From a virus (Duplodnaviria; Heunggongvirae; Uroviricota; Caudoviricetes): a stretch of DNA of 33,955 nt. The notes below the pieces were generated by a model that made no database searches, was not told the origin of the DNA, and saw nothing but the letters and a program-made list of their open reading frames with translations. The DNA lies in IMG/VR virus record IMGVR_UViG_2778261417_000008, positions 1 through 33,955 of that record; one strand, written 5' to 3'. Within the stretch, counting starts at the first letter, position 1. Each line of letters starts with the position of its first letter. Of this stretch, positions 5,366 to 29,864 are shown in pieces. Both the position numbers and the translations under genes were made by a program.

Positions 5366-5366
5366 A

Positions 5367-6978: not shown

Positions 6979-7106
6979 AAAAATCCCTTTTAGTTACCGC
7001 TGATAGCGCGGTTGTAATCATTAACGTTGCGATTCTTCCTGTTAATCCCCATCAGCATCGTTTCTGAACCGCCCCGGGTTTCCTGGAGAGTGTTTTATCT
7101 GTGAAC

Positions 7107-9849
<2,743 letters not shown>

Positions 9850-10267: not shown

Positions 10268-10590
10268 TTTTTCCAGAGGCGGTCGAACTCCGCCTTCGCA
10301 AAATAAGCGGAAGCCTGGCGAAGGATATCGTTACTGCGGCGCAGTTCACGATTTTCACGTTCCAGCTCTTTCAGACGCTGACGTTCAGCGGTGGTGAGCC
10401 CTCCATCACCGCCCCCGGTATCCCGCTCATGCTGGCGAACCCAGACACGCAGAGTCTCCGGCGTACAGCCAATCTTTGGAGCAATGGAACAAATTGTCGC
10501 CCATTGTGAGTCATATTCGCTCTGACTTTCCAGAACCATACGGACTGCCCGTTGACGGACTTCGGGGGAAAAACGAGTATTTTTAGTCAT
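10264..10590 (-). CDS. IS3-family OrfA (HTH/leucine-zipper transposase subunit), IS629-like
   Basis: 108-aa translation [22 protein letters not shown]…[33 protein letters not shown] matches IS629/IS1203 OrfA from memory. Confidence 0.85.
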
Positions 10591-10644
10591 CCTGTTTACC
10601 TCTTTCTCAGGAAGTTTAGTCTCCAGGATTCCCGGGGCGGTTCA

Positions 10645-12171: not shown

Positions 12172-12801
12172 ATGAACATACCACCCAGGGCGACTAGGAC
12201 TGTTTTTTGTGTCGGTAGCGGTCCGTCACTCACTCGTGAGGACTGTGCTGCTATAGAAAAAACTGGCTGTTCAATCATCGCGGTTAACAATTCCTGGCAG
12301 ATGTTCGATGACATTTATGCCTTATACGCCGGTGATTTGTCATGGTGGAAGCAATACGGATCCACCATACCGGGAGGGAGATTCCGCAAAGTGACAGCCA
12401 ACCTGGCGGCGGCGAAATCATTTTCGTTGGAGTACAGGCGATATTGTGGACCGGCTGAAGGGGTTAATAGCGGCGCGCAGGCTATCAGTCTGGCGGCTGA
12501 ATCAGGGGCTGAAGTAGTTGTATTAGTCGGCTATGACTGTTCTCTGCAAAACGGCCTTCATTGGCATGGAGCACACCCTCAAGCCCTACGGAATCCAACG
12601 CAGGTGTCTATTTCAAAATGGCAACAGCAGTTCCTGGATACCCGCAAAAAACACGCAGATTTACATATTTTGAATGCAAGTAGGAGCAGTGCAATTCAAT
12701 GTTTCCCAAGAATAAATTTAGAGGCAGTGATCGCGTTATTATCGTCGGCAGTGGCCCAAGCGCCGCAAACTTTGTTGCGCCGCGCGGAGTGCCGATTATA
12801 G
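12172..12801 (+). CDS. Hypothetical Rossmann-like protein (paralogue 1), GSGPS…IAVN motif
   Basis: Start inferred at the ATG at 12172 (the ORF track begins at 12139). Shares a VGSGPS…IIAVN…core with the next ORF. Confidence 0.5.
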   Translation: MNIPPRATRTVFCVGSGPSLTREDCAAIEKTGCSIIAVNNSWQMFDDIYALYAGDLSWWKQYGSTIPGGRFRKVTANLAAAKSFSLEYRRYCGPAEGVNSGAQAISLAAESGAEVVVLVGYDCSLQNGLHWHGAHPQALRNPTQVSISKWQQQFLDTRKKHADLHILNASRSSAIQCFPRINLEAVIALLSSAVAQAPQTLLRRAECRL

Positions 12802-13325
12802 CGGTCAATGGGGCCATCGACTGGCTGAACCGCGCTTCTTATTTTTTCACACTTGATCCATCGCCAGACAATATGCGGCGCGTTGGTCGTGGCCGCCGTC
12901 GCCGTGGTGTTTGTTATTGCATGGCACTACCCGATGTTAAAGAACGTGAAGTCAGAGACGGCGTTCTGTGCTTCCGTCGTGTGGCTGAACGTGGCATGGA
13001 GCCAAAAAATACGAATTCTCCCGAGTGGTGGGCGTGGCGCTGGTCCGCACATTTCGGACTTTGCGAAGATGAGAATGAAATTGCCAGCGGCAATAGTGCA
13101 TATGGCGCTCTGAACCTGGCTTTCCATATCGGATTCAAACATGTCGCCCTGGTGGGCGTTGACGCTACACAAGAACCACGCGTTCACTCCGACGGCACGC
13201 CAAAAAATCTAAGTCACCTGCCTTTGTTATTCCAGTCTGCGCGTGAACAGATTGACGTTGTTTCATGCGGGAAAATGGGAGGTATTCCGCAGATGACTCT
13301 TAAAGAATGGCTGAAGAATACATGA
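12699..13325 (+). CDS. Hypothetical Rossmann-like protein (paralogue 2), GSGPS…IAVN motif
   Basis: [29 protein letters not shown]; overlaps paralogue 1 by about 100 nt in another frame. Confidence 0.5.
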
Positions 13326-13999
13326 TGGCACCCACAATTTATCACCGTATCGACGGTACCAAATACAGGAATGTCTGGGTTGTTGGTGATCTGCATGGTT
13401 GCTACACCAGACTGATGTCCGAACTCCATCGTGTGGATTTTGACCCGGCGCAGGATTTACTGATATCGGTCGGCGACCTTATCGATCGCGGTACTGAAAA
13501 TGTCGAATGTCTGGAACTATTGCAGATGCCCTGGTTCAGAGCGGTCATGGGTAACCATGAGCGGCTGATGATTGATGCGTTAAGTCCAGATGGCAACGTG
13601 AATAACTGGCTAATGAATGGCGGACAATGGTTCTTCATGCTGGACACTGATCAGGAAATATTAGCCTGGGCGCTGGTGGAGTTGGTAAGACGACTGCCCT
13701 ATATCATTGAGTTGAACACCGGGCAAGAAACTATCGTTATAGCCCATGCCGACTATCCGGATAATGAATACCAATTCGGTAAGGAGGTGCCGCTTTTCAA
13801 CGTTGTCTGGGCGCGCGAGCGTATCAGTGATTCGATGGATGATATTGGTGGCGAAATTTCGGGCGCAGATCGTTTTATCTTTGGTCACACTCCGGTGAAA
13901 AGCCCGAAGACATTCTGGAATCAGCAGTATATCGACACTGGTGCCGTATTTTGCGGAAACCTGACATTGATGAAAGTGAAAGGTGATGGTGCAGCATGA
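13322..13999 (+). CDS. ppp: Ser/Thr protein phosphatase, lambda PPase-like metallophosphoesterase
   Basis: GDLHGC…GDLIDRG…GNHE motifs. P1 carries a gene called ppp; equivalence is inferred. Start is ambiguous (13307, 13322 or 13325). Confidence 0.75.
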
Positions 14000-14997
14000 A
14001 GATTGCTTTAGTTTTTCGCTCTGGTGGTGACTATAACGCTTCCGATGTGCAGTGGCTGGTTAATCAACTGCCAAAAGGCTATGAAATTATTTGCCTGACA
14101 GACCTGAAGCGTTTACATGTACCTGGCGTCAAAGTTGTCCCATTGATCAACCAGTGGCAAAAGTGCCGTGGCTGGTGGGCGAAAATAGAGTTGTTCCGAC
14201 CGGATATAACAGATGATCTGTTCTATCTGGATTTGGACACAGTTATTGCCGGTGATATACGCCCAATCCTTGAGAATCCACCAACCAGCTTCACCATGCT
14301 TAGGGATTTTTACCATCCACAATATCGTGGTAGCGGTGCCCTGTGGATACCAAATAGTGTAAAAGCGCATATCTGGAGTGCATTCTGGCAAGATCCGGAA
14401 GGTTGGGTTGCTCGTTGTGTTACTACTGAATGCTGGGGTGATCAGGGGTTTTTGCGGAAGGTTATGGGTGATGATACACCAGCATTTCAGGATCTGTATC
14501 CGGGATGGTTTGTAAGTTACAAGGCCGATGTTGTGGAACCTGGTTCGAAATATGCGAGCGCGCGTTACTCCAAGGGGAATGGGGCATTACCAAAAGACTG
14601 CCGAATAATCTTTTTCCACGGCAAACCGCGACCTCGCGAAGTGTCAGAGGATTGGCTTCCCCTTATCAGCTCGTTTTTTGAGCGAGAATCAGAATTATAT
14701 TGCTCTAATAATTCCATATTTTTAAAGCGTGATGTACACTCATCACGTTTTTTATTAGAGCAATCTACAGGGTGCACTATGTGGCCATTCCGACGGAAAT
14801 ATCACTACTGGCTGATCGCCTTTGTTACGCCGACCGGCGGTATCAGGCATGTCATCACCAGGTATCGCAACAAGAGACTCACCTTAGCCAGAATTTTACA
14901 GGCTGCCATAGGTGAGGGACTGGATACAAATTGCGTAGTCCTTCCTCCTTCATACTTAGGAAAAATGACCGAAGCACAAGCTAATACGGAACTTTGA
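13996..14997 (+). CDS. Hypothetical protein with a DxD (YLDLDTV) motif; possible glycosyltransferase
   Basis: 333-aa ORF, start overlaps the previous stop. DxD motif only; weak assignment. Confidence 0.4.
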
Positions 14998-14998
14998 A

Positions 14999-16261
14999 AT
15001 GAGCACTTCAGCACAAAACCAATCAATCGAAAATGTATCTATCCCTGATGTCCTGAATGCCGGTATCCCGGCCATTATCCAGAACATCCGGGCCGCGCAA
15101 CGCCGCGTTAGTTGTGATGACCTCACAGCACGTTTTTTTGATAATGCGGTTCAGTCAGCGGAGATGCTTCACGCACAGCTTATTGATGTTTATAACGCAG
15201 AAGCTGATAGCCATAACTCCCTGGTAGATGCAGCTGAAAATATGCAGTTGGATCTCGGTCTGAAGGGTAAAGAAATTGAAGAGCTTCAGCTGCAAATTGA
15301 ACATTTGAAACGCCAGCAACAGGACGCGATCGACGATGCGACGCATGACGCCAACCAGCGTGCTGATAATGCCGAACGTATAAGCATTGAGCTGGAAACA
15401 AAACTCAATGAAGTGACCGCGATGGTTGAACTGCGGAACTCACAGATTTCAACGCTAAAATCTCAATATAAAGAGATCATGAAACTTGATCCTTTTAACC
15501 TTGAGAAACGCTATAACAAAGCCAAAAGTGAGCGACAGGAACTGCGTAAGCAGGTCGCCGACCTTAACCAACAGCTCAAAAAGACTATTAAAGATGCAAG
15601 TGAGGCGCGCGTGGCATTTGCTAATAAAAAAGCAGAGGTTACCGCGCTGGTTAATGAGAATGCCAAATTTGCGACGCTCAAGAAGGAAATGTATGGCATT
15701 ACTGAGCGACGTTTCCCTGCAAGCAAACTTCATCCGACGTTAGGGCAAATCTCCTTCTTCCCGCGCCTCCTGGCTTATGGGATCTCATCGCCTAAAGAGT
15801 TCAATAACGAGCGTCCTTATATCGTTTCTAAGCTGGACTTTGCTTATCAGTTCTGCTGCGACATGGGCTATGCCATTGATATCCGAATCAACGAATGGTT
15901 GATGCCAAACTTCCAGCCGTTGGCCATTTTCCGCGAGTTCCAGCCGGAAGGTTGGGTAGAGTTCTTCCATGAATTGATCTGTAAAGAGATGGAAAGCCGC
16001 CGCCCGGAACTGGTCCGTCGAGTTGAGTGGGCGCAAGAGGTTATGTTGGCAGAGGCAGAGCTGCCGTTCGAACCGGAATTTATTGATGATCTGGCAGCTA
16101 AAGGGCTGCATACCCTGTTTGATGTGGTTACCCGCCGTCATGAGCAGTTGGTTGTCGAATTGGGTTTAGAGGAAACAGCGGCAAGAAGACTTCTCGATGT
16201 TTGCTATGCACGTAGCGATGCATGGGAAAAAGAGAACGGCGGCACTATTTACGTTCGCTGA
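14999..16261 (+). CDS. Hypothetical protein with an N-terminal coiled-coil (420 aa)
   Basis: Heptad-rich Q/E/K/L segment at residues about 60-220; C-terminal domain unrecognised. Confidence 0.45.
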   Translation: MSTSAQNQSIENVSIPDVLNAGIPAIIQNIRAAQRRVSCDDLTARFFDNAVQSAEMLHAQLIDVYNAEADSHNSLVDAAENMQLDLGLKGKEIEELQLQIEHLKRQQQDAIDDATHDANQRADNAERISIELETKLNEVTAMVELRNSQISTLKSQYKEIMKLDPFNLEKRYNKAKSERQELRKQVADLNQQLKKTIKDASEARVAFANKKAEVTALVNENAKFATLKKEMYGITERRFPASKLHPTLGQISFFPRLLAYGISSPKEFNNERPYIVSKLDFAYQFCCDMGYAIDIRINEWLMPNFQPLAIFREFQPEGWVEFFHELICKEMESRRPELVRRVEWAQEVMLAEAELPFEPEFIDDLAAKGLHTLFDVVTRRHEQLVVELGLEETAARRLLDVCYARSDAWEKENGGTIYVR

Positions 16262-16333
16262 AAGTTACAGTGTCACTTTTGATGCTGGTGGAGTGCGCCC
16301 ACCAGCATTTTTTTCGTCCAATGAGGAGGGCAT

Positions 16334-16840
16334 TTGAGTATTTTCAATAAACACGCACACCAGGAACGTCCGTATATCGTCATAGTTGATATTGATGGAA
16401 CAATATCAGAGGCAACTGAAGACAGACTGCATTTGCTTCCGCCACCAGGTAAAGGTGCATTAACAAAGGACTGGAACGAGTTTAATCTCGCCTGTGACAC
16501 TGATACTCCCATAACTCCAGTTATTGATATTGTGCGCCAGTTATTTAACGTTTACACGGTCTGGTTTGTAACCGGACGCTGTGAGATCGCAAGGGATAAA
16601 ACACGAGCCTGGCTGCGGAAGTACGTAACAAACGGGGCTGAGCCTTTGCTATCTATGCGTCCTGCCACCGATGACAGAAATGACGGCCCAGCAAAGATTG
16701 ATCTCCTTAAGAAAATTGGTCTAAGTAAAATCGCGTTCGCGCTGGAAGATAAGATTGAAGTGGCGCGTGTTTTCAGGAGGCACGGCGTGCTTACGTTAAT
16801 GGTCAGGGAGTATGAAAACGCGCTTCTCCATCAACAATAA
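16334..16840 (+). CDS. HAD-superfamily phosphatase-like protein (168 aa)
   Basis: VIVDIDGTIS (DxDGT) motif I near the N-terminus; possibly the P1 pap-like gene. Confidence 0.55.
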   Translation: MSIFNKHAHQERPYIVIVDIDGTISEATEDRLHLLPPPGKGALTKDWNEFNLACDTDTPITPVIDIVRQLFNVYTVWFVTGRCEIARDKTRAWLRKYVTNGAEPLLSMRPATDDRNDGPAKIDLLKKIGLSKIAFALEDKIEVARVFRRHGVLTLMVREYENALLHQQ

Positions 16841-16856
16841 TTGCTCTAATAAATAT
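16840..16856 (+). promoter_or_regulatory. C1 operator (ATTGCTCTAATAAATAT)
   Basis: Near-perfect match to the P1 C1 operator consensus. Confidence 0.7.
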
Positions 16857-16938
16857 TTATTTTTAAAACAGAGAAAGTGAAAATAAAAACATGCCGCAAG
16901 GCGCGGCATGTATCCAATCAATCACAGGAGCTGAAAAT

Positions 16939-17025
16939 ATGAACACGGCATTCAAAATCATTATGGCCGCGATCTATTTCTGGCTGTTCTCTATCACTTT
17001 TGGCGATATCGTCGCACATGGGTAA
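16939..17025 (+). CDS. Possible small hydrophobic peptide (28 aa, MNTAFKIIMAAIYFWLFSITFGDIVAHG)
   Basis: AGGAG 8 nt upstream of the ATG; flanked by hairpins at 16891-16911 and 17063-17090. Speculative. Confidence 0.25.
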   Translation: MNTAFKIIMAAIYFWLFSITFGDIVAHG

Positions 17026-17104
17026 GGGGAGTATATTAGCCATTTGGAACCCCACGGTCTCTTGCGGGTTTAATTAAGAACCCGCAAGAAAAACACGAAT
17101 TGGG

Positions 17105-20100
17105 CTATATTTTTCCGCCTACGCCTTTAAACTTCTCAATAAACGAGACGATTTTCTGGAAAACTGCCTGTTTTTTCGTTTTATATTGCGGATTTAACGG
17201 ACTAAGTTTTGGTAATGTTTCGTTTAATTCTGTGCCATTTTCGGTGGCATATTCGCGTTTTAAAGACGTGCGAATATAGCGTTTTGCTGCATCTTCATTG
17301 AGATTTTCTTCTTTTATCAATGCTTCTGCTTCACGTTGCTGTTCGCGTTGAGCAAACGTAAAGAATGCGTCAATGATGCTGGCTTTGTCCGGTAAATCAT
17401 CCAGGTTCGTTTGCTGAATAAAATCGACCACCAGGCCCTCTTTAGCACGGTTTCCCAGGCTTGAACGAATTAAGCGTTTGACCTCTTCGATCATTTCGCC
17501 CTTGCCTTTATTTTGTCTGTTGTGTTCGAAAATCAGTCCAAGGATATAATCCAGGTTTATTTCCTGAGACTTCAGCAAATCGACCTCAAAAACTACGTCA
17601 TCCCAGTCAGTGGTTGATTTCTCTTTTTTCTCAGCTTCTTTCTCACGGCGCTGCCAGTCGCGAATATCGTTATAGGCAGAACGATAATCCTGAATCTTGC
17701 GATCAGCAGGGAGACGAATTGTTTGCAATTCAGCGAACTTTTCATCATCCACATAATGTTCTGCTTTGAATTTTTCTACCGCAACAGGATCGCTAAGATC
17801 GATTTGTTGCAGGGCTTTTAGCGTGGCAAATTCATCATAGTTTTGCAGGATGTTCTCGGCACGCAGGTATTCGCCAAACAGTTTAACGAAGTCTTTCTTC
17901 TCTTTTTCACTTTCAATACTGGTAGGGTCAGGGAACCGTTGTTCCAGTTCTGAAACTACTGTCATGAAGCCGCGTTTAGCTTCACCTGTAGCAGCATCAG
18001 TAAAGCCTTCCATATACTCTGTATAACTCTTTTCTAACACCACATTTTTGGTGTTTTTGTCACCAAACAGCGTTATGGCATCAATAGTTGAGCGTTCCAG
18101 ATCCCGGAAAGTGACGATATTACCGAAGGTTTTAGTGGCGTCATAAATGCGGTTGGTGCGGGAAAATGCCTGCATCAGGCCGTGATAACGTAAGTTTTTA
18201 TCGACGAATAGCGTGTTCAATGTTGGAGCATCGAAGCCGGTTAAGAACATCCCCACGACAATTAGCAGATCGATATCCTGATTTTTAACCCGCTGGGCTA
18301 AATCACGATAGTAGTTCTGAAAACCGTTACTGTCGGTGCTAAAGTTAGTTTTAAAATGGCTGTTATATTCACGAATTGCAGCGTCCAGAAACTCTTTAGC
18401 ACTGCTGTCCATTGCGCTGGTATCAAAAGTTTCATCGGAAATTTCACCAATGGCATTTTGTTCTTCATTGGCGGCAAAGGAGAAGATTGTCGCAATACGC
18501 AGCGGTTTATAGGTAGCCGATTTATTAGCGGCTTCTTCTTGTAACCGTTTAAACGTCGCATAATAGGCTTTCGCGGCATCCACGCTGCTCACTGCCAACA
18601 TAGCATTAAAACCTTTTGAGCCAGGGAAGGTACGGTGGGTTTTCTGGCGGAAATTATTCAGAATATATTGCGTGATTTCCTGAATACGCATGGGATGAAG
18701 AAACGCCTGCTGATTTTCAGCCGCACTCAGTTTTTTCTCGTCAGTTTCTGTCTCTAAAGACTTAAACTGTGGCCGCACATCGTTGTAGTCCACCTTGAAT
18801 TTGAGCACTTTTTCGTCACGAATCGCATCGGTAATTACATACGAATGCAATTCACGACCAAATACGCTGGCGGTTGTTTCTGAGCCTAAGGCGTTTTCCG
18901 GGAAAATAGGGGTGCCGGTAAAACCAAACTGATAATAGCGTTTGAATTTCTTCTTCAGGTTTTTCTGCGCTTCTCCAAACTGGCTGCGGTGGCATTCATC
19001 AAATATAAACACCACTTGCTGATTATATACAGGCAGATCGCTTTCTGCTTTCATCAGGTTATTGAGTTTCTGAATAGTAGTGACGATAATTTTGTTATCG
19101 TCCTTATCCAGATTTCGTTTAAGGCCTGCGGTATTTTCCGAGCCGTTGACGCTGTCTGGCGAAAAACGCTGATATTCCTTCATGGTCTGGTAATCGAGGT
19201 CTTTCCTGTCGACCACAAAGAAGACTTTATCAATAAAGTCCAGCTCTGTTGCCAGACGCGCGGCTTTAAAGCTGGTGAGGGTTTTACCAGAACCGGTAGT
19301 GTGCCAGATATACCCACCGCTTTCCGGTTTTGACCAGTTCTTCGCTGTAAAGGAACTCTTAATTTTCCACAGAATGCGCTCGGTGGCGGCAATCTGGTAC
19401 GGTCGCATTACCAGTAGTGTCTGACTGCTGTCAAAAACGCTGTAGTTCACCAGAACATTAAGCAGAGTATGTTTCTGGAAAAAGGTGGCGGTAAAGTCTT
19501 TGAGGTCTTTAATCAGCGTATTGTCTGATTTCGCCCAGTTCATGGTGAAGTCAAAACTGTTTTTATCGCGCTTTGTCGTGTTGGCAAAATAACGGGTATC
19601 AGTGCCGTTGGAAATGACGAACAGCTGCAGATACTTAAACAGGGAATTTTCGCTGTTAAAACTCTCTTTACTGTAACGATGTATCTGGTTGAAAGCCTCA
19701 CGAATCGCCACGCCGCGTTTTTTCAGTTCGATTTGTACCAGCGGTAAGCCATTAACCAGGATAGTTACGTCATAACGGTTAGCGTGAGAACCCGCCTGTT
19801 CAAACTGCTGGATAATCTGCACCTTATTGCGCATGAGATTCTTTTTATCTATCAAATAGATGTTCTCAAGACGCTCGTCATCAAAAATAAAGTCGCAAAT
19901 ATAGTCGATATGGATTTTACGGGTCTTATCCAGAATGCCATCGCTCGGGTTATCCAGATACTGCTCCGTGAAACGCCGCCACTCGCTGTCATTAAACACC
20001 ACACCATTGAGGTTCTGAAGCTGTTCCCGAACATTGGCCAGCATCGCCGACTGTGATTTTACGGATATAAATTCATAGCCCTGATTCCGTAGGTCCTGTA

Positions 20101-20221
20101 TCAGTTCGCGTTCCAGGTCCGATTCGCTCTGGTAGCTGTCGCCTGTTGGCTCAGCTTTGATGTACTTATCAAGAACGATAAAGTTATTGGATTCAGCAAT
20201 GGTGTGTGTCTGATGAGTCAT
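17105..20221 (-). CDS. hsdR: Type I restriction enzyme R subunit (HsdR), type IC / EcoR124-like
   Basis: 1038 aa; helicase motifs ([22 protein letters not shown]); length matches EcoR124 HsdR as I recall it. Confidence 0.9.
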
Positions 20222-20342
20222 AGCGCATCCTTTGTGCCGTCTGGCAAGGGCCGGAAGGGGGGTAATGGTGACTTCCGGCGCGTAAAAAATAGTCTATATA
20301 CTGACCGGGTGTTAAGGTGGTCCGATCGGTAGCAATGATCAA

Positions 20343-21557
20343 TTAATTACTGACAGTTTCAGGTTTCGGGAAACTGAACAGTAAATCACGATAGTACTCG
20401 TATTGTTTCTGGCGCAACTCGATTTCACGCGGAAGACCTTCGGTGATGGAGTTAGTCAGTGTGTCGAATTTGTCGAGTATTTCGACAATTCGTTGTTGTT
20501 CATTGATGTTAGGAACCGGAATTTTAAATGAAAATAATTTTTTACTGTCAATAGAAGCTACGGACCCTCCTGTCTTTTTCGCTGCTCGCAGAATATCACT
20601 CCCCCTAGACCCAATCATATGATAAATATATTTAACCAAGATGTTTTCATGAGGAATGACTGCTTTCATATCTTGATTGAGCGTAGCAGGTACTTTTATT
20701 AATGCACTTGGTAATACTTTATCCAATATGCTTGAGCGAACAACGATTGCAATCGAGTTTGCTGGAATCAGTTTTGTTGACGATTGTAGAACAGCCTCCT
20801 CAGTTATATAGTCTTCCGAAGAGTCTACAAGTGTTCGGCCCATATCTTTCGGGGAAATCCATGGAATGCTTCCATTTTCCCAAAATTCAATTTTATTTTT
20901 TGATGGTGTCCCTCCCCCATACCATTTTCCGATCTCTCCCAAAGTCTTCCACTCAACCTCACCCTCTTTAAAACTCAACAACTGGTCGCGATAGTAGTTG
21001 TACTGTTTTTTACGCATGTTAAGCTCAGCGGTAAGCTCAGCGGTAAGTGCAGTAAATTTATCCAGAATCCGAACGATTTCAGACTGGATGGCAAGGGATT
21101 TTTCCGGATTATCCGGGCAGGGGATTGGGATTTTTTTTTGAGAATAATTACTAATCCATTGGCGTTTATGGTCTCCCTCTGCGAATTCACTTGGTAATGT
21201 ATTGAGCCAATAGTAAACATATTTCAGTAAGGTTTTATTATCATCACATGATGTAACCATTTTCATGGCCGATGATTTTGCCTTAAAGTCAAAATCCACC
21301 CATTTATTAGCGGTGGTGAAATCATCAAAAATTATTACAGGTGCCTTTGATGCCTGATAAATACCATGAGTCTCATTTGTGTATCCAAGAATAAATGTTT
21401 TTCCGGCAGTAAGAACCGGTATGGTATATGTGTCGTGATAATCTTTTGCTTTTACCAAATACTTTGTTGGCTGTTCATATTTGGTTATTTCCCCCAATGG
21501 CAACCACTCAACTTCAACCCCATCCAGCAATTTTTCCAGATAACTCATCTCGCTCAT
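20343..21557 (-). CDS. hsdS: Type I restriction-modification specificity subunit (HsdS), EcoR124-like
   Basis: 404 aa with two target-recognition domains around a central conserved region containing TAELTAEL; 4-nt overlap with hsdM. Confidence 0.9.
21021..21044 (-). repeat. Tandem 12-bp repeat (2 copies, encoding TAEL-TAEL) in the hsdS central spacer region
   Basis: aagctcagcggt aagctcagcggt on the plus strand; the next 12 nt (21045-21056) are a degenerate third unit. Confidence 0.85.
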
Positions 21558-23116
21558 TTCTGCACCTCGCAGCCTTCAATTTCAGCCACAATCGCATCAA
21601 TATCTTTGCGCAACTGGTCGATTTTGCTGACCGTGGTTTTCAGCTCAGCATTCAGCTCAGCAATATCGATAATTTCGCGGTTATCTTTCGCTTCCACATA
21701 GCTGCTCACCGACAGGTTATAGTCATTAGCAACAACGGTCTCAAACGCGACAGATTTCGCCAGATGAGCAACATCTTCCTTGCTGGCAAATACCTGCATA
21801 ATCTGTTCGATATGGGCATCGGTCAGGATATTGTTGTTAGTCTCTTTTTTGAACAGTTCGCTGGCGTCAATAAACTGAACGTTGGTATCCGTTTTATGTT
21901 TGGACAGAACCAGAATGTTTACTGCAATGGTGGTGCCAAAGAACAGGTTCGGTGCCAGTGAAATTACGGTTTCGACATAGTTATTGTCAATCAGATACTG
22001 ACGGATTTTCTGCTCCGCGCCGCCACGGTAAAAAATACCCGGGAAGCAAACAATCGCAGCACGACCTTTGGCAGAAAGATAGTTCAGCGCATGTAATACA
22101 AACGCAAAGTCAGCTTTGGATTTGGGGGCCAGAACGCCAGCCGGGGCAAAACGTTCATCGTTAATCAGCGTCGGGTCATCGCTGCCAATCCATTTCACCG
22201 AATACGGCGGGTTAGAAACGATGGCATCAAACGGTTTTTCATCTCTGAAGTGTGGCTCAGTCAGTGTATTACCCAGCTTGATATCAAACTTGTCGTAGTT
22301 GATGTTGTGCAAAAACATGTTCATACGTGCCAGGTTATAGGTTGTATGGTTGATTTCCTGACCAAAAAAGCCTTCTTCGATGATATGGTCATCAAACTGT
22401 TTTTTAGCCTGCAACAACAGCGAACCGGATCCTGCTGCCGGGTCGTAGATTTTGTTAACGTGGGTCTGCCCGTGCATAGCCAGTTGTGCAATCAGCTTAG
22501 AGACGTGTTGCGGTGTAAAGAACTCGCCGCCTGACTTACCGGCATTCGCCGCATAGTTAGAAATCAGGAACTCATAGGCGTCACCGAACAGGTCAATCTG
22601 ATGTTCGTTGAAGTCACCAAGTTTTAACCCTTCAACCCCTTTCAGAACCGCAGCCAGGCGGGCATTTTTATCTTTAACGGTGTTACCCAGGCGGTTACTG
22701 GTGGTATCGAAATCAGCAAACAAACCTTTGATGTCAGCTTCTGAAGGATAACCGTAAGCAGAACTTTCGATAGCAACGAAGATGCTGTTTAAATCTGCAT
22801 TCAGTCTGTCATTAGTATTTGCTTTCGCAGCTACGTTGCAGAAAAGCTGACTGGGGTAGATGAAGTAGCCTTTAGTTTTGATGGCATCGTCTTTAATGTC
22901 ATCAGTAATTACGCTGTCATCCAGTTTCGCATAACAGATACTGTCATCACCGGCTTCAATATAACTGGAAAAATTTTCGCTGATAAAACGGTAGAAAAGT
23001 GCGCCCAGAACGTATTGCTTAAAATCCCATCCATCGACCGAACCCCTGACATCGTTAGCAATTTGCCAGATTTGACGATGAAGCTCTGCACGTTGTTGAA
23101 TACTTGTCATTTTCAT
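21554..23116 (-). CDS. hsdM: Type I restriction-modification methyltransferase subunit (HsdM), EcoR124-like
   Basis: 520 aa; N6-adenine methyltransferase NPPY-type motif (VSNPPYS) and AdoMet-binding region. Confidence 0.9.
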
Positions 23117-23249
23117 CCACTTATTTCAGGCTTATGTAATTGGATGTGATTCTACAGCAACTTGGATGCTTTAGCAGTTCGGACATTAGGCTACGAATGA
23201 CCTGCCTAGAGGTTTGTTAAGCCGCAAAGTGCTGGTGCTTTATGCCTGT

Positions 23250-23288
23250 GAAGTTTATAATTGTGTACACATAACGAGTACATGAGGT
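23250..23288 (+). promoter_or_regulatory. phd-doc promoter with palindromic operator sites
   Basis: TATAAT at 23256-23261 followed by tgtGTACAcataacgaGTACatg immediately upstream of phd. Confidence 0.6.
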
Positions 23289-23292
23289 ATTT

Positions 23293-23514
23293 ATGCAATC
23301 CATTAACTTCCGTACCGCGCGCGGCAACCTTTCTGAAGTGCTCAACAATGTTGAGGCCGGGGAAGAGGTTGAAATCACCCGCAGAGGCCGTGAGCCAGCA
23401 GTAATTGTCAGCAAGGCTACTTTCGAAGCCTACAAAAAAGCGGCGCTGGATGCTGAATTTGCATCCCTGTTTGACACCCTGGACTCCACCAACAAGGAAC
23501 TGGTTAACCGATAA
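23293..23514 (+). CDS. phd: Phd antitoxin
   Basis: 73-aa translation matches P1 Phd from memory (MQSINFRTARGNLSEVLNNVEAGEEVEITRRGREPAVIV…). Confidence 0.93.
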   Translation: MQSINFRTARGNLSEVLNNVEAGEEVEITRRGREPAVIVSKATFEAYKKAALDAEFASLFDTLDSTNKELVNR

Positions 23515-23894
23515 TGAGGCATATATCACCGGAAGAACTTATTGCGCTTCATGATGCGAATATAAACTGCTACGGCGGCTTGCCGGGAATGTCAGATCCG
23601 GGTAGGGCAGAGGCCATTATCGGGAGAGTTCAGGCCAGAGTTGCCTACGAAGAGATCACCGACCTTTTCGAAGTCTCCGCCACCTACCTGGTGGCTACAG
23701 CGAGAGGGCATATATTCAATGATGCCAATAAGCGTACCGCGCTAAACAGCGCGCTGCTATTTCTACGCCGTAACGGGGTGCAGGTATTTGATTCACCTGA
23801 ACTGGCAGACCTTACTGTAGGCGCTGCGACTGGCGAGATATCTGTATCTTCTGTCGCCGACACGTTACGTAGATTGTATGGTTCTGCGGAGTAG
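23514..23894 (+). CDS. doc: Doc toxin (Fic-fold kinase)
   Basis: 126 aa; overlaps the phd stop; matches P1 Doc from memory. Confidence 0.93.
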
Positions 23895-23898
23895 ATTA

Positions 23899-24078
23899 AT
23901 GGCACGCAAATACAACAAATTGTACCGTGAAGCGTTAAAGATGCTTCTTGATGGCGTGAGTCGCCGCGAGGTAAAGCAATACCTGGTTGGTAAGCAAATT
24001 GGAGCCAGGACTGCTATTGCTGTGTTATGCCGTCAGGAAATGGTTGTGCTTAAACAGAGAATGCCGGGCAGCAGATAA
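23899..24078 (+). CDS. Small hypothetical protein after doc (about 59 aa), possible DNA-binding protein
   Basis: ATG at 23899 just after the doc stop; basic, helix-rich. Confidence 0.4.
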   Translation: MARKYNKLYREALKMLLDGVSRREVKQYLVGKQIGARTAIAVLCRQEMVVLKQRMPGSR

Positions 24079-24105
24079 AGCCCAATCAGTGATGAAAGGT
24101 GTGAT

Positions 24106-25149
24106 GTGAAAGCCGTAATTACTCCCTTTGTACAAAAAGAGCTTGGCGTCGCCACATTCAAAGTGGATCAGGAAGTCAGAAAGCTGGTGGAGGCTGGCCG
24201 TAAATTTATTATGGAGCCGGTGCCGCGTGAGTTAATCGAGCACATGGACGACGGCCTCGTTGTTTCCGAGCAAACTATGGCAACAAATGAGGCGTTGCAG
24301 CCGTTTTTTAACAGCGATGAACTGTTTCGCCGTATTGGTGGAATTGACGCGCTGGTGGCGTGGTTGCGCAGGAAAGAGGGGCAATGCCAGGCCGCAGATC
24401 GTAGCTGGTGTGACAACCATATTGTCCACGCAGAACGAGACAATAGCGCGGTGTTGTTGTGCTGGCATCACGATAACCATTACCGGATGCGTGGTTTTAA
24501 TGAGCTGAAAGAAACGCTGCATAATAATCGCGTTAACTGGATACTGGATGTCGCCCGTCAGGAAATGGGGCTTTCAGATGGCCATGATTTAAGTATTCAG
24601 GAACTGTGCTGGTGGGCTTTCATGCGCAACATGATGCACCTGATGCCGGAAGAAGTTTGCCGTATATCAATAAATAAGATGAAAGCCGCAACGCAGGATA
24701 GCGGACCTCTGAAAGAGGCGGATATTCGCCCGTATGACGATCGCGCTACAGCATATGTTCAGATGATGGAAGAACGCGCCGCGCCGATGCGTGCAAAAGT
24801 ATGCCCTGTGGATGTTGACTCCGACCCTGGCATGGCGCATTTCAAAATACCAAAACTGCAATCGCTAAAATTACCTGAGTACATGGACTTTGTTGCTTCC
24901 CGTCCATGCTGTGGGTGTGGAGCGGCGGGAGCTGGCGCTCACATTACGCCTTATATCGTTCGTCATAGTCGATTATGCGCGCATGACATTTACGCAATTC
25001 CTCTGTGCCAGTCATGCCAGCGTGATATTGAGCGTGACCGCGATAATTGGGAGAAGACGCACGGTAGGCTGGCGATGCATCAACGATTGTTCTTTGATTA
25101 CGCGCTTGGAGTCGGCGCTATCACAAGTCACTCGTCGAGCGTTAGATAA
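24106..25149 (+). CDS. Hypothetical phage protein with Cys/His-rich C-terminal motif (possible zinc-binding or HNH-like)
   Basis: 347 aa; CWHHDNHY and [12 protein letters not shown]…C.H…CQSCQ clusters. Confidence 0.5.
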
Positions 25150-25150
25150 A

Positions 25151-25167
25151 ATTGCTCTAATGTATTG
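25151..25167 (+). promoter_or_regulatory. C1 operator-like site (ATTGCTCTAATGTATTG)
   Basis: Matches the C1 operator consensus in 13 of 17 positions; lies between the 347-aa ORF and the packaging genes. Confidence 0.55.
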
Positions 25168-25237
25168 CCATTTCTTTAATCGAGGGTATTATATTCCACG
25201 TTGATTAGTTGACATGGGCTAATCAGTAGGTGACAGG

Positions 25238-25435
25238 ATGTTACTTAACTGGCAGGGACGCCACTTCATGGAAATAAATCACTCACGAATAACATCGTAC
25301 GAGATTGCGGATTACATGATCCGCACTAAATCTCTTCTATCAGCGAAAGAACTCGCAGCAATTCTTGAAAAGGAATACCCGCATCTGGATGTCGATAAGC
25401 GCGATGTTTATCTGCGCTTACGAACGAAAGCGTGA
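25238..25435 (+). CDS. Putative terminase small-subunit-like N-terminal segment (65-aa ORF)
   Basis: Helix-turn-helix-like small ORF upstream of the large terminase; overlaps the next ORF in a different frame. Confidence 0.35.
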
Positions 25436-25820
25436 AAATAACTGGTCAGTGCTGGAAGCAGCTGAATTCATCGAGGCGCATGGCGGAAAAGTGCCGCCCC
25501 TGATGCTGGAGCAAATCAAAGCCGATCTGCGTGCTCCTAAGACCAATACCGATGATGAGGAAAGGCAAACAGCCGTCGGTGGCCCTTCTCTTGAAGATCT
25601 GGACAAAGTTGCGCGAGAACGGGCCGCCAACCGCCGCGCCGATGCCGCATTGTGGATTGAGCAGCGTAGGGAAGAAATCGCCGATATCGTTGATACAGGC
25701 GGTTATGGAGATGTTGATACTGAAGGTGTATCAAACGACCCATGGCTGGAACAAGACCTGGACGAAGACGAGGAGGAAGACGAAGAAGTTACCCGCAAGC
25801 TATACGGGGATGATGATTAA
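25365..25820 (+). CDS. Putative terminase small-subunit-like C-terminal segment with acidic tail
   Basis: Acidic tail (…[11 protein letters not shown]…); stop overlaps the start of the large terminase (ATGATTAATGG). True start may be the GTG at 25458. Confidence 0.4.
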
Positions 25821-27304
25821 TGGCCAGAAGTTGCGTAACGGATCCACGTTGGCGCGAGCTGGTGGCGCTATATCGTTATGACTGGATTGCTGCCGCTGAT
25901 GTTTTGTTCGGCAAAACACCTACCTGGCAGCAGGATCTGATTATTGAGTCTGTGCAGGAACAGGGTAGCAAGACATCTGTTTCGTCTGGTCACGGTACCG
26001 GGAAATCAGACATGACTTCTATCATGATCATGTTGTTCATAATCATGTATCCCGGTGCCCGCGCCATTATCGTTGCGAACAAAATTCAGCAGGTAATGAC
26101 CGGTATATTCAAGTACATCAAGATAAACTGGGCTACTGCCACCAGCCGTTTTCCATGGCTTGCTGATTATTTTGTTCTGACAGAAACCGCTTTCTATGAG
26201 GTTACTGGTAAAGGTGTATGGACTGTAGTACCGAAGGGCTTTCGTCTGGGAAGTGAAGAAGCTCTCGCCGGTGAACACGCAGATCATCTTCTGTATATTA
26301 TCGATGAAGCCTCCGGTGTCAGTGATAGAGCTTTCGGTATCATCACCGGTGCTCTTACCGGACAGGATAACCGCATCTTATTGCTGTCACAGCCTACACG
26401 CCCAAGCGGCTATTTCTACGATACACACCATAAACTGGCCAAGCGTCCTGGTAACCCTGATGGCGTTTATACGGCGATCACGCTTAACAGTGAGGAATCA
26501 CCGTTGGTAACGCCAGCATTTATCAAAATGAAGCTGGCGGAGTACGGCGGGCGTGATAACCCTATGTACATGATTAAGGTACGCGGCCTATTCCCTAAAT
26601 CACAGGATGGCTTCCTTCTTGGACGTGATGAGGTTGAACGTGCAACGCGGCGGAAAGTCAAGATTGCCAAAGGATGGGGCTGGCTTGCATGTGTGGACGT
26701 TGCTGGTGGTACGGGACGGGATAAGTCCGTTATCAATATCATGATGGTGTCCGGCCAGCGAAATAAACGCCGTGTAATCAACTATCGAATGCTGGAATAC
26801 ACAGACGTTACAGAAACGCAGCTTGCCGCCAAAATTTTCGCAGAATGTAATCCTGAGCGATTCCCAAATATCACCATAGCGATAGACGGCGATGGCCTGG
26901 GTAAAGCAACGGCGGATCTGATGTACGAGTATTATGGTATTACCGTACAGCGTATACGCTGGGGTAAAAAGATGCATAGCCGTGAAGATAAGAGCCTGTA
27001 CTTTGATAAACGTGCTTATGCCAACGTTCAAGCCGCAGAGGCCGTAAAATCTGGTCGTATGAGACTGGATAAGGGTAATGAAACTATTGAGGAAGCGTCG
27101 AAAATCCCTGTAGGGATTAACTCCGCAGGTCAATGGAAGGTGATGAGTAAGGAGGATATGAAGAAAAAACTCAACCTGCACTCACCAGACCATTGGGATA
27201 CATATTGTTTCGCTATGCTGGCGGATTATGTTCCCCAGGATGAAGTGCTTAGCGTCGAAGACGAAGCGCAGGTTGATGAAGCTCTGGCATGGCTTAATGA
27301 ATGA
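25820..27304 (+). CDS. Terminase large subunit (PacB-like), 494 aa
   Basis: Walker A SGHGTGKS and Walker [12 protein letters not shown]; position just upstream of the immunity regions as for P1 pacB. Confidence 0.7.
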
Positions 27305-27307
27305 ATA

Positions 27308-27324
27308 TTTGCTCTAATAAATTG
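27308..27324 (+). promoter_or_regulatory. C1 operator (Op51-like) in front of the c4-icd-ant operon
   Basis: TTTGCTCTAATAAATTG. Confidence 0.65.
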
Positions 27325-27504
27325 TGTTTTTTAACTACCGATGTTACATTGAGCCTGACCTCTTGCGCCTTGAGGCATTTTCGGTTTATGCTTATCAGGC
27401 ACCTCATTAAAACGGGTGCCGGGATTGGCCTCCCGCTTAAGTCTAAGGCGATACAGACGCCGCTCGCGTCTTTTTTTTGTATCGGCGTACACGCACACCT
27501 CTAC

Positions 27505-27580
27505 AATGGTGGGCTGTATGGGGCTACCTTCGGGTAGGCTGGTTACCTTGGACGCCAGTAAGGCCAACTCCGTACAGTCC
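27505..27580 (+). ncRNA. c4: Candidate c4 antisense RNA (immI repressor RNA); boundaries approximate
   Basis: tRNA-like closing stem (ggctgtatgg / ccgtacagtcc) followed by ACCGCC. Internal CCUUGGACG (27545-27553) is complementary, with one G-U, to CGUCUAAGG at the icd ribosome-binding site (27624-27632) and to an upstream copy at 27441-27449. Confidence 0.45.
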
Positions 27581-27643
27581 ACCGCCAGCAAGATTGGTCT
27601 CTTCTGCGGTGGTTACATACCAACGTCTAAGGAGGCTGCCAAT

Positions 27644-27865
27644 ATGGCTACTATCCCTACCCCAACTCATCCTGAATTTATCTGGCGCTTTTACTCCTGC
27701 CAAAAACGTCACTATCACTTCGTTATTGCACCGACAGAAGATGAGGCCCGCTCTCAGCTTCCTGACGCCCCATGTATTTTCTCTGCCCGTTTTTCCACTG
27801 ATTCACGCAATTCTCTCAGTTACTGGTGCCTCCCTGTTAACGCTTCTGCTCAGGAGGGACTATGA
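27644..27865 (+). CDS. icd: Icd (interference with cell division), 73 aa, translationally coupled to ant
   Basis: ATG at 27644 with AAGGAGG upstream; stop overlaps the ant start (ATGA). Confidence 0.6.
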   Translation: MATIPTPTHPEFIWRFYSCQKRHYHFVIAPTEDEARSQLPDAPCIFSARFSTDSRNSLSYWCLPVNASAQEGL

Positions 27866-28980
27866 GAACGTCATTAGTCACCCGTGAAGAGATGATCGAG
27901 GCAATTGAACAGCACACTGCCTGTATCAGTACCAGGGATATACCAGGCGTTATTGCCAACTACTTCATGATCACCAAACAACTTTACCGGAGAAAGGACA
28001 AGAACGCGGTTCACCGTATCCTGTTGTCTGATATCCGCGAATACCTGCTCGAACAGGGTCATCTGAATTACGCAACCGCCGCAGCCGAAGCACGCAAGGA
28101 GGCACACAGAATGAAAGCAACTAACGTTAAATCAGAAAAAATTCATGCACCTTCAGTTCAAGAATCGGAGCTGGTGGTTGTTCAGAATCAGTCTGATGAA
28201 ATTCCCGTTCTGGAATGGCAGGGAGTGCGTGTAGTGACAACCGAGACTCTTGCTAGAGGGTATGGGACAGAAACAATCCGTATTCGCCAAAATCATCATG
28301 AGAACAAAGTACGCTTTGTTGAAGGGAAGCACTTTTTCAAAGTTGAAGGAGAATCATTGCGCGAGTTGAAGCACAGAGTAGCTTTAAACTACTCTGTAAA
28401 AATTGCTCGCAATGTTCGCTCACTCACCCTCTGGACAGAACGCGGCGCAGCCCGCCACGCTAAAATGCTCGAAACCGATCAGGCATGGGCATTCTTTGAA
28501 AAACTGGAAGACAGCTACTTCCGACAAAAAGAACAGCAACCGATCGCAATCCCCCAGACGCTTCCTGAAGCCCTACGCCTGGCTGCCGAACTGGCTGAAC
28601 AAAAGCAACTTCTGGAACAGAAAGCCCACCAGCTAAATCAGCAGCTGGTGGCCGCCGCTCCTAAAGTCGATTTTGCCGACCGGGTATCAGTAGCTAAAGG
28701 GATCCTGATTGGGAATTTTGCAAAGGTTGTTGGACTTAAACAAAACGCGCTGTTTGTCTGGTTACGGGAGAACGGCATCCTGATAGCGTCCGGTGGACGT
28801 AAAAATGTGCCGTTCCAGCAGTACATCAACGCGGGGTATTTCACGGTGAAAGAAGTGGTGCTGGATGATGAAGATGGCTACCAGATACGGTTGACGCCTC
28901 AATTAACGGGTAAAGGCCAGCAGTGGTTGACGCGTAAACTGCTCGATGCTGGCTTGTTAAAACCGGTGGCGGCTGAATAA
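27862..28980 (+). CDS. ant: Antirepressor Ant (Ant1, 372 aa; an in-frame internal start near codon 84 would give Ant2)
   Basis: ORF6N/Bro-N-like N-terminal region and KilA-C/ANT-type C-terminal domain; sizes fit the reported 42 and 32 kDa P1 Ant1/Ant2. Confidence 0.7.
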   Translation: MRTSLVTREEMIEAIEQHTACISTRDIPGVIANYFMITKQLYRRKDKNAVHRILLSDIREYLLEQGHLNYATAAAEARKEAHRMKATNVKSEKIHAPSVQESELVVVQNQSDEIPVLEWQGVRVVTTETLARGYGTETIRIRQNHHENKVRFVEGKHFFKVEGESLRELKHRVALNYSVKIARNVRSLTLWTERGAARHAKMLETDQAWAFFEKLEDSYFRQKEQQPIAIPQTLPEALRLAAELAEQKQLLEQKAHQLNQQLVAAAPKVDFADRVSVAKGILIGNFAKVVGLKQNALFVWLRENGILIASGGRKNVPFQQYINAGYFTVKEVVLDDEDGYQIRLTPQLTGKGQQWLTRKLLDAGLLKPVAAE

Positions 28981-28987
28981 TGGAAGA

Positions 28988-29009
28988 ATGCCCGGTTGAT
29001 GCCGGGCAT
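28988..29009. terminator. Bidirectional hairpin terminator between convergent ant and c1
   Basis: ATGCCCGG-ttgatg-CCGGGCAT. Confidence 0.6.
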
Positions 29010-29012
29010 AAT

Positions 29013-29864
29013 TTATTGCGCGCTTTCGGGGTTGTCGTTTACTGGCTGCCCCTTCTTGGTTTTACGGCTGCGCGTAACTGATGCGGCTGACTTAACCTTT
29101 TTCTCTTCGCGAGTGATGGCAATTTGTTTTTTTACATTTTCAATATCTGCCAGGCGATATATTTTTGCTTGCGGCCAGCGGTCGCAGATGATCGGTTCTA
29201 TGGAGTCATAAAGGCTAAATTTTGCTTTTTCGAATTCACCGTTGATGATAATTCCATCACGGAGAGTTTCATCGCAGATAAACACGCCACACAGTGGCAC
29301 ATGGTAACTAACTGATTTACCATCATTGTAGTTAGGGCTACTGGAAATGTAGTGGACGCGCAGCATTGTTTCGCTAAAGCCGTGTACGCGCATACGGAAT
29401 TTTTCATCCTCCGGGTACTGCTTCATTAGCTCTTTTGTTGCTTCCAGGTTCTCTATGTATTTCGCACTGTGCTCATTGATCCCCGCGCTTTTTTGGATGC
29501 GAATGTCCTTATCAATCAGATGAATAATGCGGCCAGCGGTCATGTTGACGCTGTTCACAGCTTCTGTCTGATAAGTTGTAACCTTACGCACACCGCGAAG
29601 GATGTTAGGCACTGGATATAAAATAGTCTTTGGGATATTGAGGTCTGGGTACTGTTCCAGTTCCCGCGCCATTAAAGTCCATTTATCAATTTCAGCCTGA
29701 ATGCTGTCAGTTTCTTTGAACGGTAGAACGACAACCGGGCGTACAGGACGACCGTCGCTGGCTGTATCAACGTGTTGGGCGCGTGCAACAGCTTTTTTTA
29801 GAAAGAGATCCCTGAAGCTGACGAACTCCTGGTACAGTTGTTCGCCGTAGACATAATTTATCAT
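29013..29864 (-). CDS. c1: C1 repressor of lysogeny (283 aa)
   Basis: Translation MINYVYGEQLYQEFVSFRDLFLKKAVARAQHVD… matches P1 C1 from memory. Confidence 0.95.
   Translation of the reverse strand: MINYVYGEQLYQEFVSFRDLFLKKAVARAQHVDTASDGRPVRPVVVLPFKETDSIQAEIDKWTLMARELEQYPDLNIPKTILYPVPNILRGVRKVTTYQTEAVNSVNMTAGRIIHLIDKDIRIQKSAGINEHSAKYIENLEATKELMKQYPEDEKFRMRVHGFSETMLRVHYISSSPNYNDGKSVSYHVPLCGVFICDETLRDGIIINGEFEKAKFSLYDSIEPIICDRWPQAKIYRLADIENVKKQIAITREEKKVKSAASVTRSRKTKKGQPVNDNPESAQ

Follow-up and report, generated by a model that had tools for sequence, protein, structure and literature searches.

Our analysis of a 33,955-nucleotide stretch of viral DNA (Caudoviricetes; IMG/VR record IMGVR_UViG_2778261417_000008), referred to here as the window, revealed three hsd genes of a restriction-modification system lying between two segments of a P1-type backbone. 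The features of the locus and its immediate neighbours are as follows.

16334-16840, plus strand: pap (phosphatase), the last P1 backbone gene to the left of the cassette (alignment to P1 83787-84293; Pfam HAD_PNKP)
16840-16856, plus strand: C1 operator OpmgT (Op88), from the pmgT promoter region of P1, an exact ATTGCTCTAATAAAT match
16889-16911, minus strand: hairpin with a trailing T run, resembling an intrinsic terminator, in P1-homologous DNA (terminator scan and fold)
17030-17104, no strand assigned: cassette-specific tail 3' of hsdR; P1 homology stops at 17029
about 17060-17087, no strand assigned: hairpin with a 10-bp stem in the hsdR tail (fold and sequence)
17105-20221, minus strand: hsdR, 1038 aa, EcoR124I motor and nuclease subunit (ORF list)
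20315-20286, minus strand: promoter-like site TTAACA-18-TATTTT in the hsdS-hsdR gap (consensus scan, 9/12 match)
20343-21557, minus strand: hsdS, 404 aa, specificity subunit, EcoR124I allele (ORF list)
21021-21044, minus strand: tandem pair of 12-bp repeats that encode TAEL-TAEL at residues 172-179 of HsdS (sequence and alignment)
21554-23116, minus strand: hsdM, 520 aa, N6-adenine methyltransferase subunit (ORF list)
23117-23216, minus strand: cassette-specific leader 5' of hsdM, back to back with Pphd and without P1 homology
23293-23514, plus strand: phd (NCBIfam/Pfam phd_fam)
23514-23894, plus strand: doc (NCBIfam/Pfam DOC_P1)
23293-23894, plus strand: the phd-doc addiction (toxin-antitoxin) operon, with which the P1 backbone genes resume to the right of the cassette
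23878-25149, plus strand: pdcA and pdcB (DUF968/HNH), P1 backbone (ORF, Pfam and P1 alignment)

All three hsd reading frames are full length and lie on the minus strand in the order hsdM-hsdS-hsdR, with the hsdM stop and hsdS start overlapping by 4 bp and hsdR set apart by 121 bp (20222-20342). This coupled M/S pair with a separate R gene is the type IC layout; in types IA and IB, hsdR comes first. A preliminary description, made from the sequence alone, had reported a complete EcoR124-like type IC system with subunits of 520, 404 and 1038 aa, M and S overlapping and R following, and these sizes, positions and organisation were borne out. Its family assignment can be sharpened. End-to-end alignments with the EcoR124I subunits scored 2309.5 bits for HsdR, 911 for HsdS and 1164 for HsdM, versus just 67 bits for the HsdM of the type IA enzyme EcoKI. 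Because the subunits are near-identical to the solved EcoR124I structures, we identify the locus by sequence comparison as EcoR124I itself, not merely EcoR124-like; given the full-length alignments, assignment to type IA, IB or ID, the outcome that the preliminary description had held up as a refutation, did not emerge. Pfam and NCBIfam searches back all hsd, Phd and Doc assignments, far above chance. Type I families have historically been defined by subunit complementation, the outcome of which, for the EcoR124I family, is predictable from the near-identity.

HsdR residues 1-1038 align over their full length with PDB 2w00, with C247F the one substitution visible in the alignment as displayed for residues 1-968. 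The protein contains HSDR_N, SWI2_SNF2/ResIII, T1R_D3-like and EcoR124_C domains (Pfam), scores 775 bits on TIGR00348, and retains the catalytic motifs D151/E165/K167, GSGKT at 310 and DECH at 408. HsdM is identical to PDB 7bst_D at 518 of 520 residues, differing by N243D and V376I; it scores 648 bits on TIGR00497 and carries DPAAGSG at 225 and NPPY at 302. HsdS, with two Methylase_S domains (Pfam), matches PDB 7bst_A at 403 of 404 residues, and its single difference, H258Q, falls within the second recognition domain. The same residue, Q258, is found in a related allele and on 108 publicly available contigs. All four substitutions lie outside the catalytic motifs.

The HsdS of type IC enzymes has conserved stretches at both termini and in the centre, where the number of TAEL repeats sets the length of the spacer in the recognition site. 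In EcoR124I, an HsdM2-HsdS1 complex methylates GAA(N6)RTCG at adenines in both strands. The two TAEL repeats found here therefore lead to the same predicted specificity, GAAN6RTCG. Nine such sites occur in the window against 9.2 expected by chance, so that the test for avoidance or enrichment of EcoR124I sites in the window gave no selection signature in either direction. Allele comparison indicates that the conserved regions of HsdS are common to its relatives while the recognition domains have been exchanged, and such swaps of target-recognition domains occur among the hsdS alleles found in P1 contexts.

Where does the system sit relative to P1? The comparison proposed in the preliminary description for defining the insertion boundaries places them at window 17029/17030 (P1 84482) and 23216/23217 (P1 87970), and the cassette, window 17030-23216, stands in place of P1 84483-87969 (pmgT to humD). 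Since it replaces this segment, the locus is not part of the conserved P1 backbone, which had been named as the other ground for rejecting the original reading. The right flank, from phd-doc onwards, is 97.6% identical to P1 87970-90173, and the adjacency to phd-doc is confirmed, with 176 bp and divergent transcription between the hsdM start and the addiction operon. The reference annotation of P1 has noted the association of such genes with P1 since 2004; RefSeq misc_features record that P1 84399-84482 matches sequence downstream of R124/3 hsdR and that 84263-84482 and 87969-88647 match the flanks of EcoDXXI hsd. Of the genes in the displaced segment, pmgT, pmgU, pmgV, upfN, upfO, hot, lxr and humD are non-essential in a CRISPRi map of P1, upfM having been outside the test set (PMC10695390). 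A search of the cassette borders found no terminal direct or inverted repeats, flanking IS elements or target-site duplication, and the junctions are base-identical across every P1-context copy examined. The G+C content of the cassette is 43.4%, versus 47.6% and 49.1% in the flanks, with hsdS lowest at 39%; this lower value only hints that hsd may be the incomer at the locus.

Type IC systems drive hsdR from its own promoter, and the TTAACA-18-TATTTT site could be a separate hsdR promoter, albeit a weak candidate. The consensus scan of the cassette detected no strong promoter and returned 9 sites, compared with 12.9 in shuffled sequences. The hsdM-hsdS promoter is presumed to lie in the leader at 23117-23216, which is identical in the IncF copies of the cassette. 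Downstream of hsdR, the terminator-like hairpin at 16889-16911 appears positioned to end the hsdR transcript. The operator OpmgT, aligned to P1 84293-84309, now faces the 3' end of hsdR, and no canonical plus-strand terminator was found between the two. One might imagine that, in intact hsd-bearing P1-type phages, C1 derepression at induction drives transcription antisense to hsdR and lowers restriction during lytic growth. We regard this as a long shot; if true, antisense transcription from the pmgT promoter would couple type I defence to the prophage switch.

The hallmark set of P1-like elements (Punavirus) consists of parS-parB-parA, the rep region, phd-doc, c1 and cre. P1-type maintenance and immunity genes are present in the window, in which 343-4228 is 99.3% identical to P1 57430-61315 and further P1 matches span the interval from phd to lpa as well as pacB, c1 and cre. 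The end of the window falls inside mat. Gene 23 is interrupted by an IS1 fragment at window 342/343, and an IS3-family element with a group II intron also lies in the backbone. P1 63431-78094 (mlp to gene 25; 14.7 kb) is absent from its usual place in the window and may lie elsewhere in the replicon. Deletion of P1 90174-91307 has removed the pac site, the 3' portion of lpa and the 5' portion of pacA. Both of these genes are essential to P1 (PMC10695390), and the deletion cannot be made good by a block located elsewhere in the replicon. A complete virion, late-activation and packaging set was not encountered within the window, and the element, judged from its gene content, is probably no longer a phage. 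What the preliminary description called a phage-plasmid is, in this window, visibly defective.

How common is this arrangement? With a junction-spanning probe, the pap-hsdR junction was found in 245 PLSDB plasmids, against 634 that contain the pmgS-pap backbone (~39%), in 204 of 5,426 complete E. coli genomes (~3.8%), and in two P1-like phage records, phi456 (OR339795) and vB_EcoM-673R5 (ON470615). We discarded an earlier estimate of 222 plasmids, those with 80% or more of window 16000-24500, as IncF copies can also reach this threshold. The full P1-type allele (at least 80% of P1 84483-87969) is present in only 4 PLSDB plasmids, whereas parts of that segment occur in 723. The hsd genes, termed cargo in the preliminary description, form a common alternative allele of this locus (245 of the 634 P1-backbone plasmids) and are no unusual insertion. 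The whole 8.5-kb query occurs unbroken in no phage, PLSDB or complete E. coli genome record. An exact look-up of HsdS recovered the identical protein on 108 contigs and showed that draft assemblies and metagenomes share the arrangement, among them a 320-kb contig that is 99.9% identical over window 12343-29557. IncF plasmids carry the same cassette at 99.2% identity. In these copies just 84 bp of P1 DNA is left on the hsdR side before an IS element, and on the other side phd-doc-pdcA and the 5' part of pdcB (~1.17 kb of P1) are followed by an IS element. Klebsiella plasmids contain type IC systems outside a P1 context, at about 80% identity.

Based on these observations, we propose that the intact EcoR124I cassette is, very probably, an alternative allele of the pap/phd-doc interval in a P1-derived replicon, exchanged by homologous recombination through the conserved flanks. 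An HsdM2-HsdS1 complex would methylate the adenines of GAAN6RTCG on both strands, with the two TAEL repeats of HsdS fixing the 6-bp spacer. On meeting an unmethylated site, the complex would recruit HsdR, leading to ATP-driven pulling of DNA and distant cleavage that would destroy incoming phage or plasmid DNA. The cassette would move among P1-type elements by recombination in the flanks, and its specificity would be reshuffled as the two hsdS target-recognition domains are exchanged. IncF plasmids, from which EcoR124I was historically obtained, would have acquired the cassette together with short P1 stubs. Because the adjoining phd-doc operon stabilises the replicon, the defence genes would be kept in the lineage.

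The cassette might instead be an intact-looking but silent or inactive relic, unexpressed or disabled by C247F, N243D, V376I or H258Q. Such decay would be in keeping with a backbone disrupted by IS1 in gene 23, by the IS3-family element with its group II intron and by the lpa-pacA deletion, and with a promoter scan that yielded no strong promoter. We nevertheless judge it improbable, given three full-length ORFs with every catalytic motif intact, substitutions away from those motifs, and cassette-specific upstream and intergenic DNA that is shared unchanged with the IncF copies; moreover, the identical HsdS protein is so widespread, on 108 contigs, that it argues for maintained function. Delivery by a transposon or integron-like mobile element, instead of homologous exchange, could be entertained given that the IncF copies are bordered by IS elements. 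These elements, however, cut into the P1 flank, away from the cassette edge, and the P1-context borders lack IS elements, inverted ends and target duplications, with junctions that are base-identical in all such copies examined. We have rejected this reading because no terminal repeats or IS ends occur at the borders, and its likelihood is negligible.

A less remote alternative, which we still consider unlikely, concerns the direction of the exchange: hsd may be the older occupant of the locus, with the pmgT-humD segment of P1 a later arrival, or two or more alleles may be equally old. The rarity of the full P1-type allele (4 PLSDB plasmids) relative to the hsd allele (245), and the failure to find insertion scars at the borders, would accord with this possibility. 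Against it stand a cassette G+C below that of both flanks, down to 39% in hsdS, and the type IC systems of Klebsiella plasmids outside P1 contexts (~80% identity). This is a question of polarity alone, and neither the identity of the locus nor its role would be affected.

As a discovery the locus carries little weight, since it encodes a textbook type IC enzyme in an ordinary arrangement, and the linkage of type IC hsd genes to phd-doc and P1 DNA is already known, having been published in 1997 (type IC hsd flanked by P1 DNA: Tyndall et al. 1997, Mol Microbiol 23:729, as cited in PMC12707154 and PMC2853133). The quantitative by-products are the frequencies among PLSDB P1-backbone plasmids (~39%) and complete E. 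coli genomes (~3.8%), together with the shuffling of hsdS domains. The IncF copies, from which the field obtained EcoR124I, appear to have been captured secondarily from a P1-type element. The data support the view of P1-type phage-plasmids as a main reservoir and exchange platform for the type IC restriction family.

Compared with known systems, the closest is EcoR124I, the type IC archetype from the IncF plasmid R124 (PDB 2w00, 7bst), which matches the present locus in its M-S-R order and differs from it by one residue in HsdS, two in HsdM and one visible in HsdR; in IncF plasmids it is flanked by short P1 stubs bounded by IS elements, whereas here a long P1-type backbone surrounds the cassette. 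EcoR124II (R124/3) and EcoDXXI (pDXX1) are likewise plasmid-borne type IC systems with P1-derived flanks and the same breakpoints. EcoR124II has three TAEL repeats and an N7 spacer, in contrast to the two-repeat allele in the window, and EcoDXXI has other recognition domains. EcoP1I, the type III res-mod system of P1, also resides on a P1-type element but is an unrelated type of enzyme at another locus, beside mat. Unlike the chromosomal type IC system EcoprrI (cited in PMC3874165), which has the prrC anticodon nuclease gene between its hsd genes, the locus described here has no prrC-like reading frame in the ORF list. In phi456, vB_EcoM-673R5 and the 245 PLSDB plasmids, the cassette occupies the same position between pap and phd, with ~97% nucleotide identity in hsdR and hsdM. 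Relative to the window, these elements differ in their hsdS recognition domains and in the number of TAEL repeats, the HsdS of vB_EcoM-673R5 being 39% identical to the one described here and having three TAEL repeats rather than two. The vB_EcoM-673R5 record annotates hsdR and hsdM as fragments, and both phage records lack the deletions found in the backbone of the window.

The restriction-modification genes and the adjoining addiction genes are arranged in the window as follows:

17105-20221, minus strand: hsdR, 1038 aa (ORF list)
20343-21557, minus strand: hsdS, 404 aa (ORF list)
21554-23116, minus strand: hsdM, 520 aa (ORF list)
23293-23514, plus strand: phd, divergent from hsdM (phd_fam match)
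23514-23894, plus strand: doc, divergent from hsdM (DOC_P1 match)

The ORF list reproduces exactly the coordinates (17105-23116) and sizes claimed in the preliminary description, with a 4-bp overlap between hsdM and hsdS and a 121-bp gap from hsdS to hsdR. Pfam and NCBIfam agree on every hsd and phd-doc assignment, place an EcoR124_C domain at the C-terminus of HsdR, and match curated hsdR and hsdM models. In a search of solved-structure sequences, EcoR124I HsdR (2w00) aligned to HsdR residues 1-1038 with 2309.5 bits, one substitution (C247F) being seen within alignment residues 1-968, while HsdS differs from 7bst_A by a single residue (H258Q) and HsdM from 7bst_D by two (N243D and V376I). The type IC assignment made earlier is upheld by this near-identity and by HsdM scores of 1164 bits against EcoR124 HsdM versus 67 against type IA EcoKI HsdM. 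Catalytic features are present in both HsdR (D151/E165/K167, GSGKT at 310, DECH at 408) and HsdM (DPAAGSG at 225, NPPY at 302), as judged by a motif check. Two TAEL repeats occupy HsdS residues 172-179 (window 21021-21044); in the type IC family, two repeats denote EcoR124I (GAAN6RTCG) and three EcoR124II (N7). By its sequence the system is EcoR124I, beyond merely EcoR124-like; the original observation is confirmed and its interpretation supported. Since a protein search found HsdS identical to the window's on 108 contigs, and Q258 recurs in a related allele that shares its second recognition domain, this residue is, judged by these alleles, the common natural form.

Given the identity with a solved, biochemically characterised enzyme, HsdM2-HsdS1 would methylate GAAN6RTCG and, joined by two HsdR subunits, would translocate and cut unmethylated DNA. 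Sites for this motif number 9 in the window, against 9.2 expected. A separate hsdR promoter is known for the type IC family, and a weak promoter-like site found by consensus scan within the 121-bp gap is in line with it. On the minus strand, a hairpin followed by a T run (16911-16889; terminator scan and fold) is a predicted terminator that could end the hsdR transcript. P1's C1 operator and pmgT promoter region are retained here (16840 onward); they face the hsdR 3' end and are unlikely to drive induction-dependent antisense transcription. Downstream of this C1-controlled region lies a small hydrophobic ORF of 28 codons (MNTAFKIIMAAIYFWLFSITFGDIVAHG; window 16939-17028), conserved without annotation in P1; the IncF hsd islands retain nothing of the P1 left flank except the 3' part of this ORF.

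How does the cassette sit in the P1 backbone? Comparison with P1 (NC_005856), proposed in the preliminary description as a way to define the insertion boundaries, sets the edges at window 17029/17030 and 23216/23217. Because P1 homology stops at window 17029 (P1 84482), immediately ahead of the start of pmgT, and restarts at 23217 (P1 87970), in the last bases of humD, 6,187 bp of cassette stand in place of 3,487 bp of P1 comprising pmgT, pmgU, pmgV, upfM, upfN, upfO, hot, lxr and humD. Those tested in a CRISPRi map of P1 are all non-essential, upfM being left out of the map (PMC10695390). G+C content is 43.4% in the cassette and higher on both sides of it (47.6% and 49.1%), and the cassette borders yielded neither terminal direct or inverted repeats nor IS ends.

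A junction probe (window 14999-18500, pmgS-pap plus the 3' 1.4 kb of hsdR) reached 80% coverage or more in 245 PLSDB plasmids and its pmgS-pap backbone part alone, at the same threshold, in 634; hsdR thus adjoins pap in ~39% of P1-backbone plasmids (245/634). The junction also occurs in 204 of 5,426 complete E. coli genomes, and the cassette lies at the same place in two deposited P1-like phage genomes, vB_EcoM-673R5 and phi456, the latter reported in a passage of PMC10967188 to be released spontaneously as particles. Since the hsd allele is frequent and the full reference-P1 allele rare (4 PLSDB plasmids at ≥80% coverage), sequence comparison marks the locus as a mosaic, variable region, not conserved backbone. 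Here the cassette replaces pmgT-humD, and the occupant of the locus varies among P1-type plasmids.

The label "phage-plasmid" needs refining, as the P1-derived backbone in the window is decayed. Gene 23 (major head protein) has lost its 3' end to an IS1-like fragment (window 1-342, edge ~343) that directly adjoins P1 57430 and shares 93-94% identity with the IS1 copies bordering the IncF hsd islands; the other end of the window falls within mat, next to which P1 carries its type III res-mod genes. Also missing from its place is P1 63431-78094, ~14.7 kb running from mlp to gene 25 with dmt, ban and tail genes among its contents; the site holds an IS3-family element that a group II intron interrupts (window 7067-10641):

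10264-10590: IS3 orfA
10193-10309: ALIL frameshift pseudoknot
9785-10267 and 7107-7553: IS3 orfB, in two pieces
7670-9193: group II intron RT/maturase
7580-7666: Intron_gpII (Rfam match)

Copies of this 3.6-kb unit, 99% identical, occur in many E. coli plasmids. A further deletion, of P1 90174-91307 (junction ~25405-25420, within window 25238-25820), removes the pac cleavage site (P1 ~90805) and the 5' part of pacA. It joins a 65-aa Lpa stub, covering just the first 49 of the 131 positions in the profile, to what remains of pacA at its 3' end; the leftover pacA/pacB shares only ~83% identity with P1. GCA_030002215.1 and a Logan contig have this deletion too, and in P1 both lpa and pacA are essential genes (PMC10695390). 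The element is best called a piece of P1-derived plasmid whose phage function has probably been lost, as PMC10879196 describes for this group.

Other parts of the window also diverge from P1. Between parA and oriR, the rep region (4229-6448) gave no alignment to reference P1 with sensitive local blastn and is a divergent replicon allele; its T5orf172 (GIY-YIG-like) ORF at 4295-5104 is one that RCS47 and related P1-like elements also have annotated. A TAA to TTA change at the pmgQ stop creates an in-frame 333-aa read-through (13996-14997) that runs from pmgQ through the intergenic C1 operators OpmgRa/b into pmgR, and this same product is also called in GCA_030002215.1. Whereas reference P1 has its c4-icd-ant module at ~48 kb, a second immunity-type module lies here between pacB and c1 (27399-28980):

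27399-27476: isrK-like RNA
27502-27589: C4 antisense RNA
27862-28980: ORF6N/ANT antirepressor ORF

Among P1-context cassettes, hsdR and hsdM share ~97% nucleotide identity, and hsdS is conserved only in its N-terminal, central and C-terminal segments. HsdS of vB_EcoM-673R5 differs from the window's in both recognition domains and has three TAEL repeats, whereas that of Salmonella pSZL38.1 has the second recognition domain alone in common with it; the protein search returned many further alleles, 381-426 aa long and 64-75% identical. By sequence, the alleles show the domain shuffling that is classic for type IC systems. An exact copy of the EcoR124I hsdS DNA occurs in two PLSDB plasmids, both IncF, whose cassettes are 99.2% identical over window 16946-24383. 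Unlike the window, they keep only 84 bp of P1 DNA on the hsdR side before an IS1, and phd-doc-pdcA with ~280 bp of pdcB on the other before another IS. Exact HsdS matches lie in both IncF and P1-type contexts. The P1-type ones include GCA_014329565.1, a pair of metagenome scaffolds, and GCA_030002215.1, in which a 320-kb contig matches window 12343-29557 at 99.9% identity. On the simplest reading, the IncF copies would be secondary captures and the P1-type element the context they came from. In the IncF plasmids (NZ_LR882053.1 and NZ_CP103563.1), the EcoR124I-phd-doc island belongs to a larger defence and addiction cluster, adjoining ccdAB and a CBASS-like pair of SMODS-like protein and S-4TM effector (loci 2721-4652 and 1488-2013).

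The cassette's breakpoints are shared by misc_features of the P1 RefSeq record. For the EcoDXXI hsd locus, these mark 84263-84482 as 96% identical to its downstream sequence and 87969-88647 (phd-doc) as 98% identical to the conjugative-plasmid sequence on its upstream side; for R124/3, they mark 84399-84482 as 98% identical to what follows hsdR. Tyndall et al. (1997) reportedly described P1 DNA flanking type IC hsd loci. Their work serves in a passage of PMC12707154 as an example of restriction systems linked to mobile elements, and is also cited in passages of PMC2853133, PMC519025 and PMC3205389. A type IC hsd cassette in a P1-type context is thus already known, and common.
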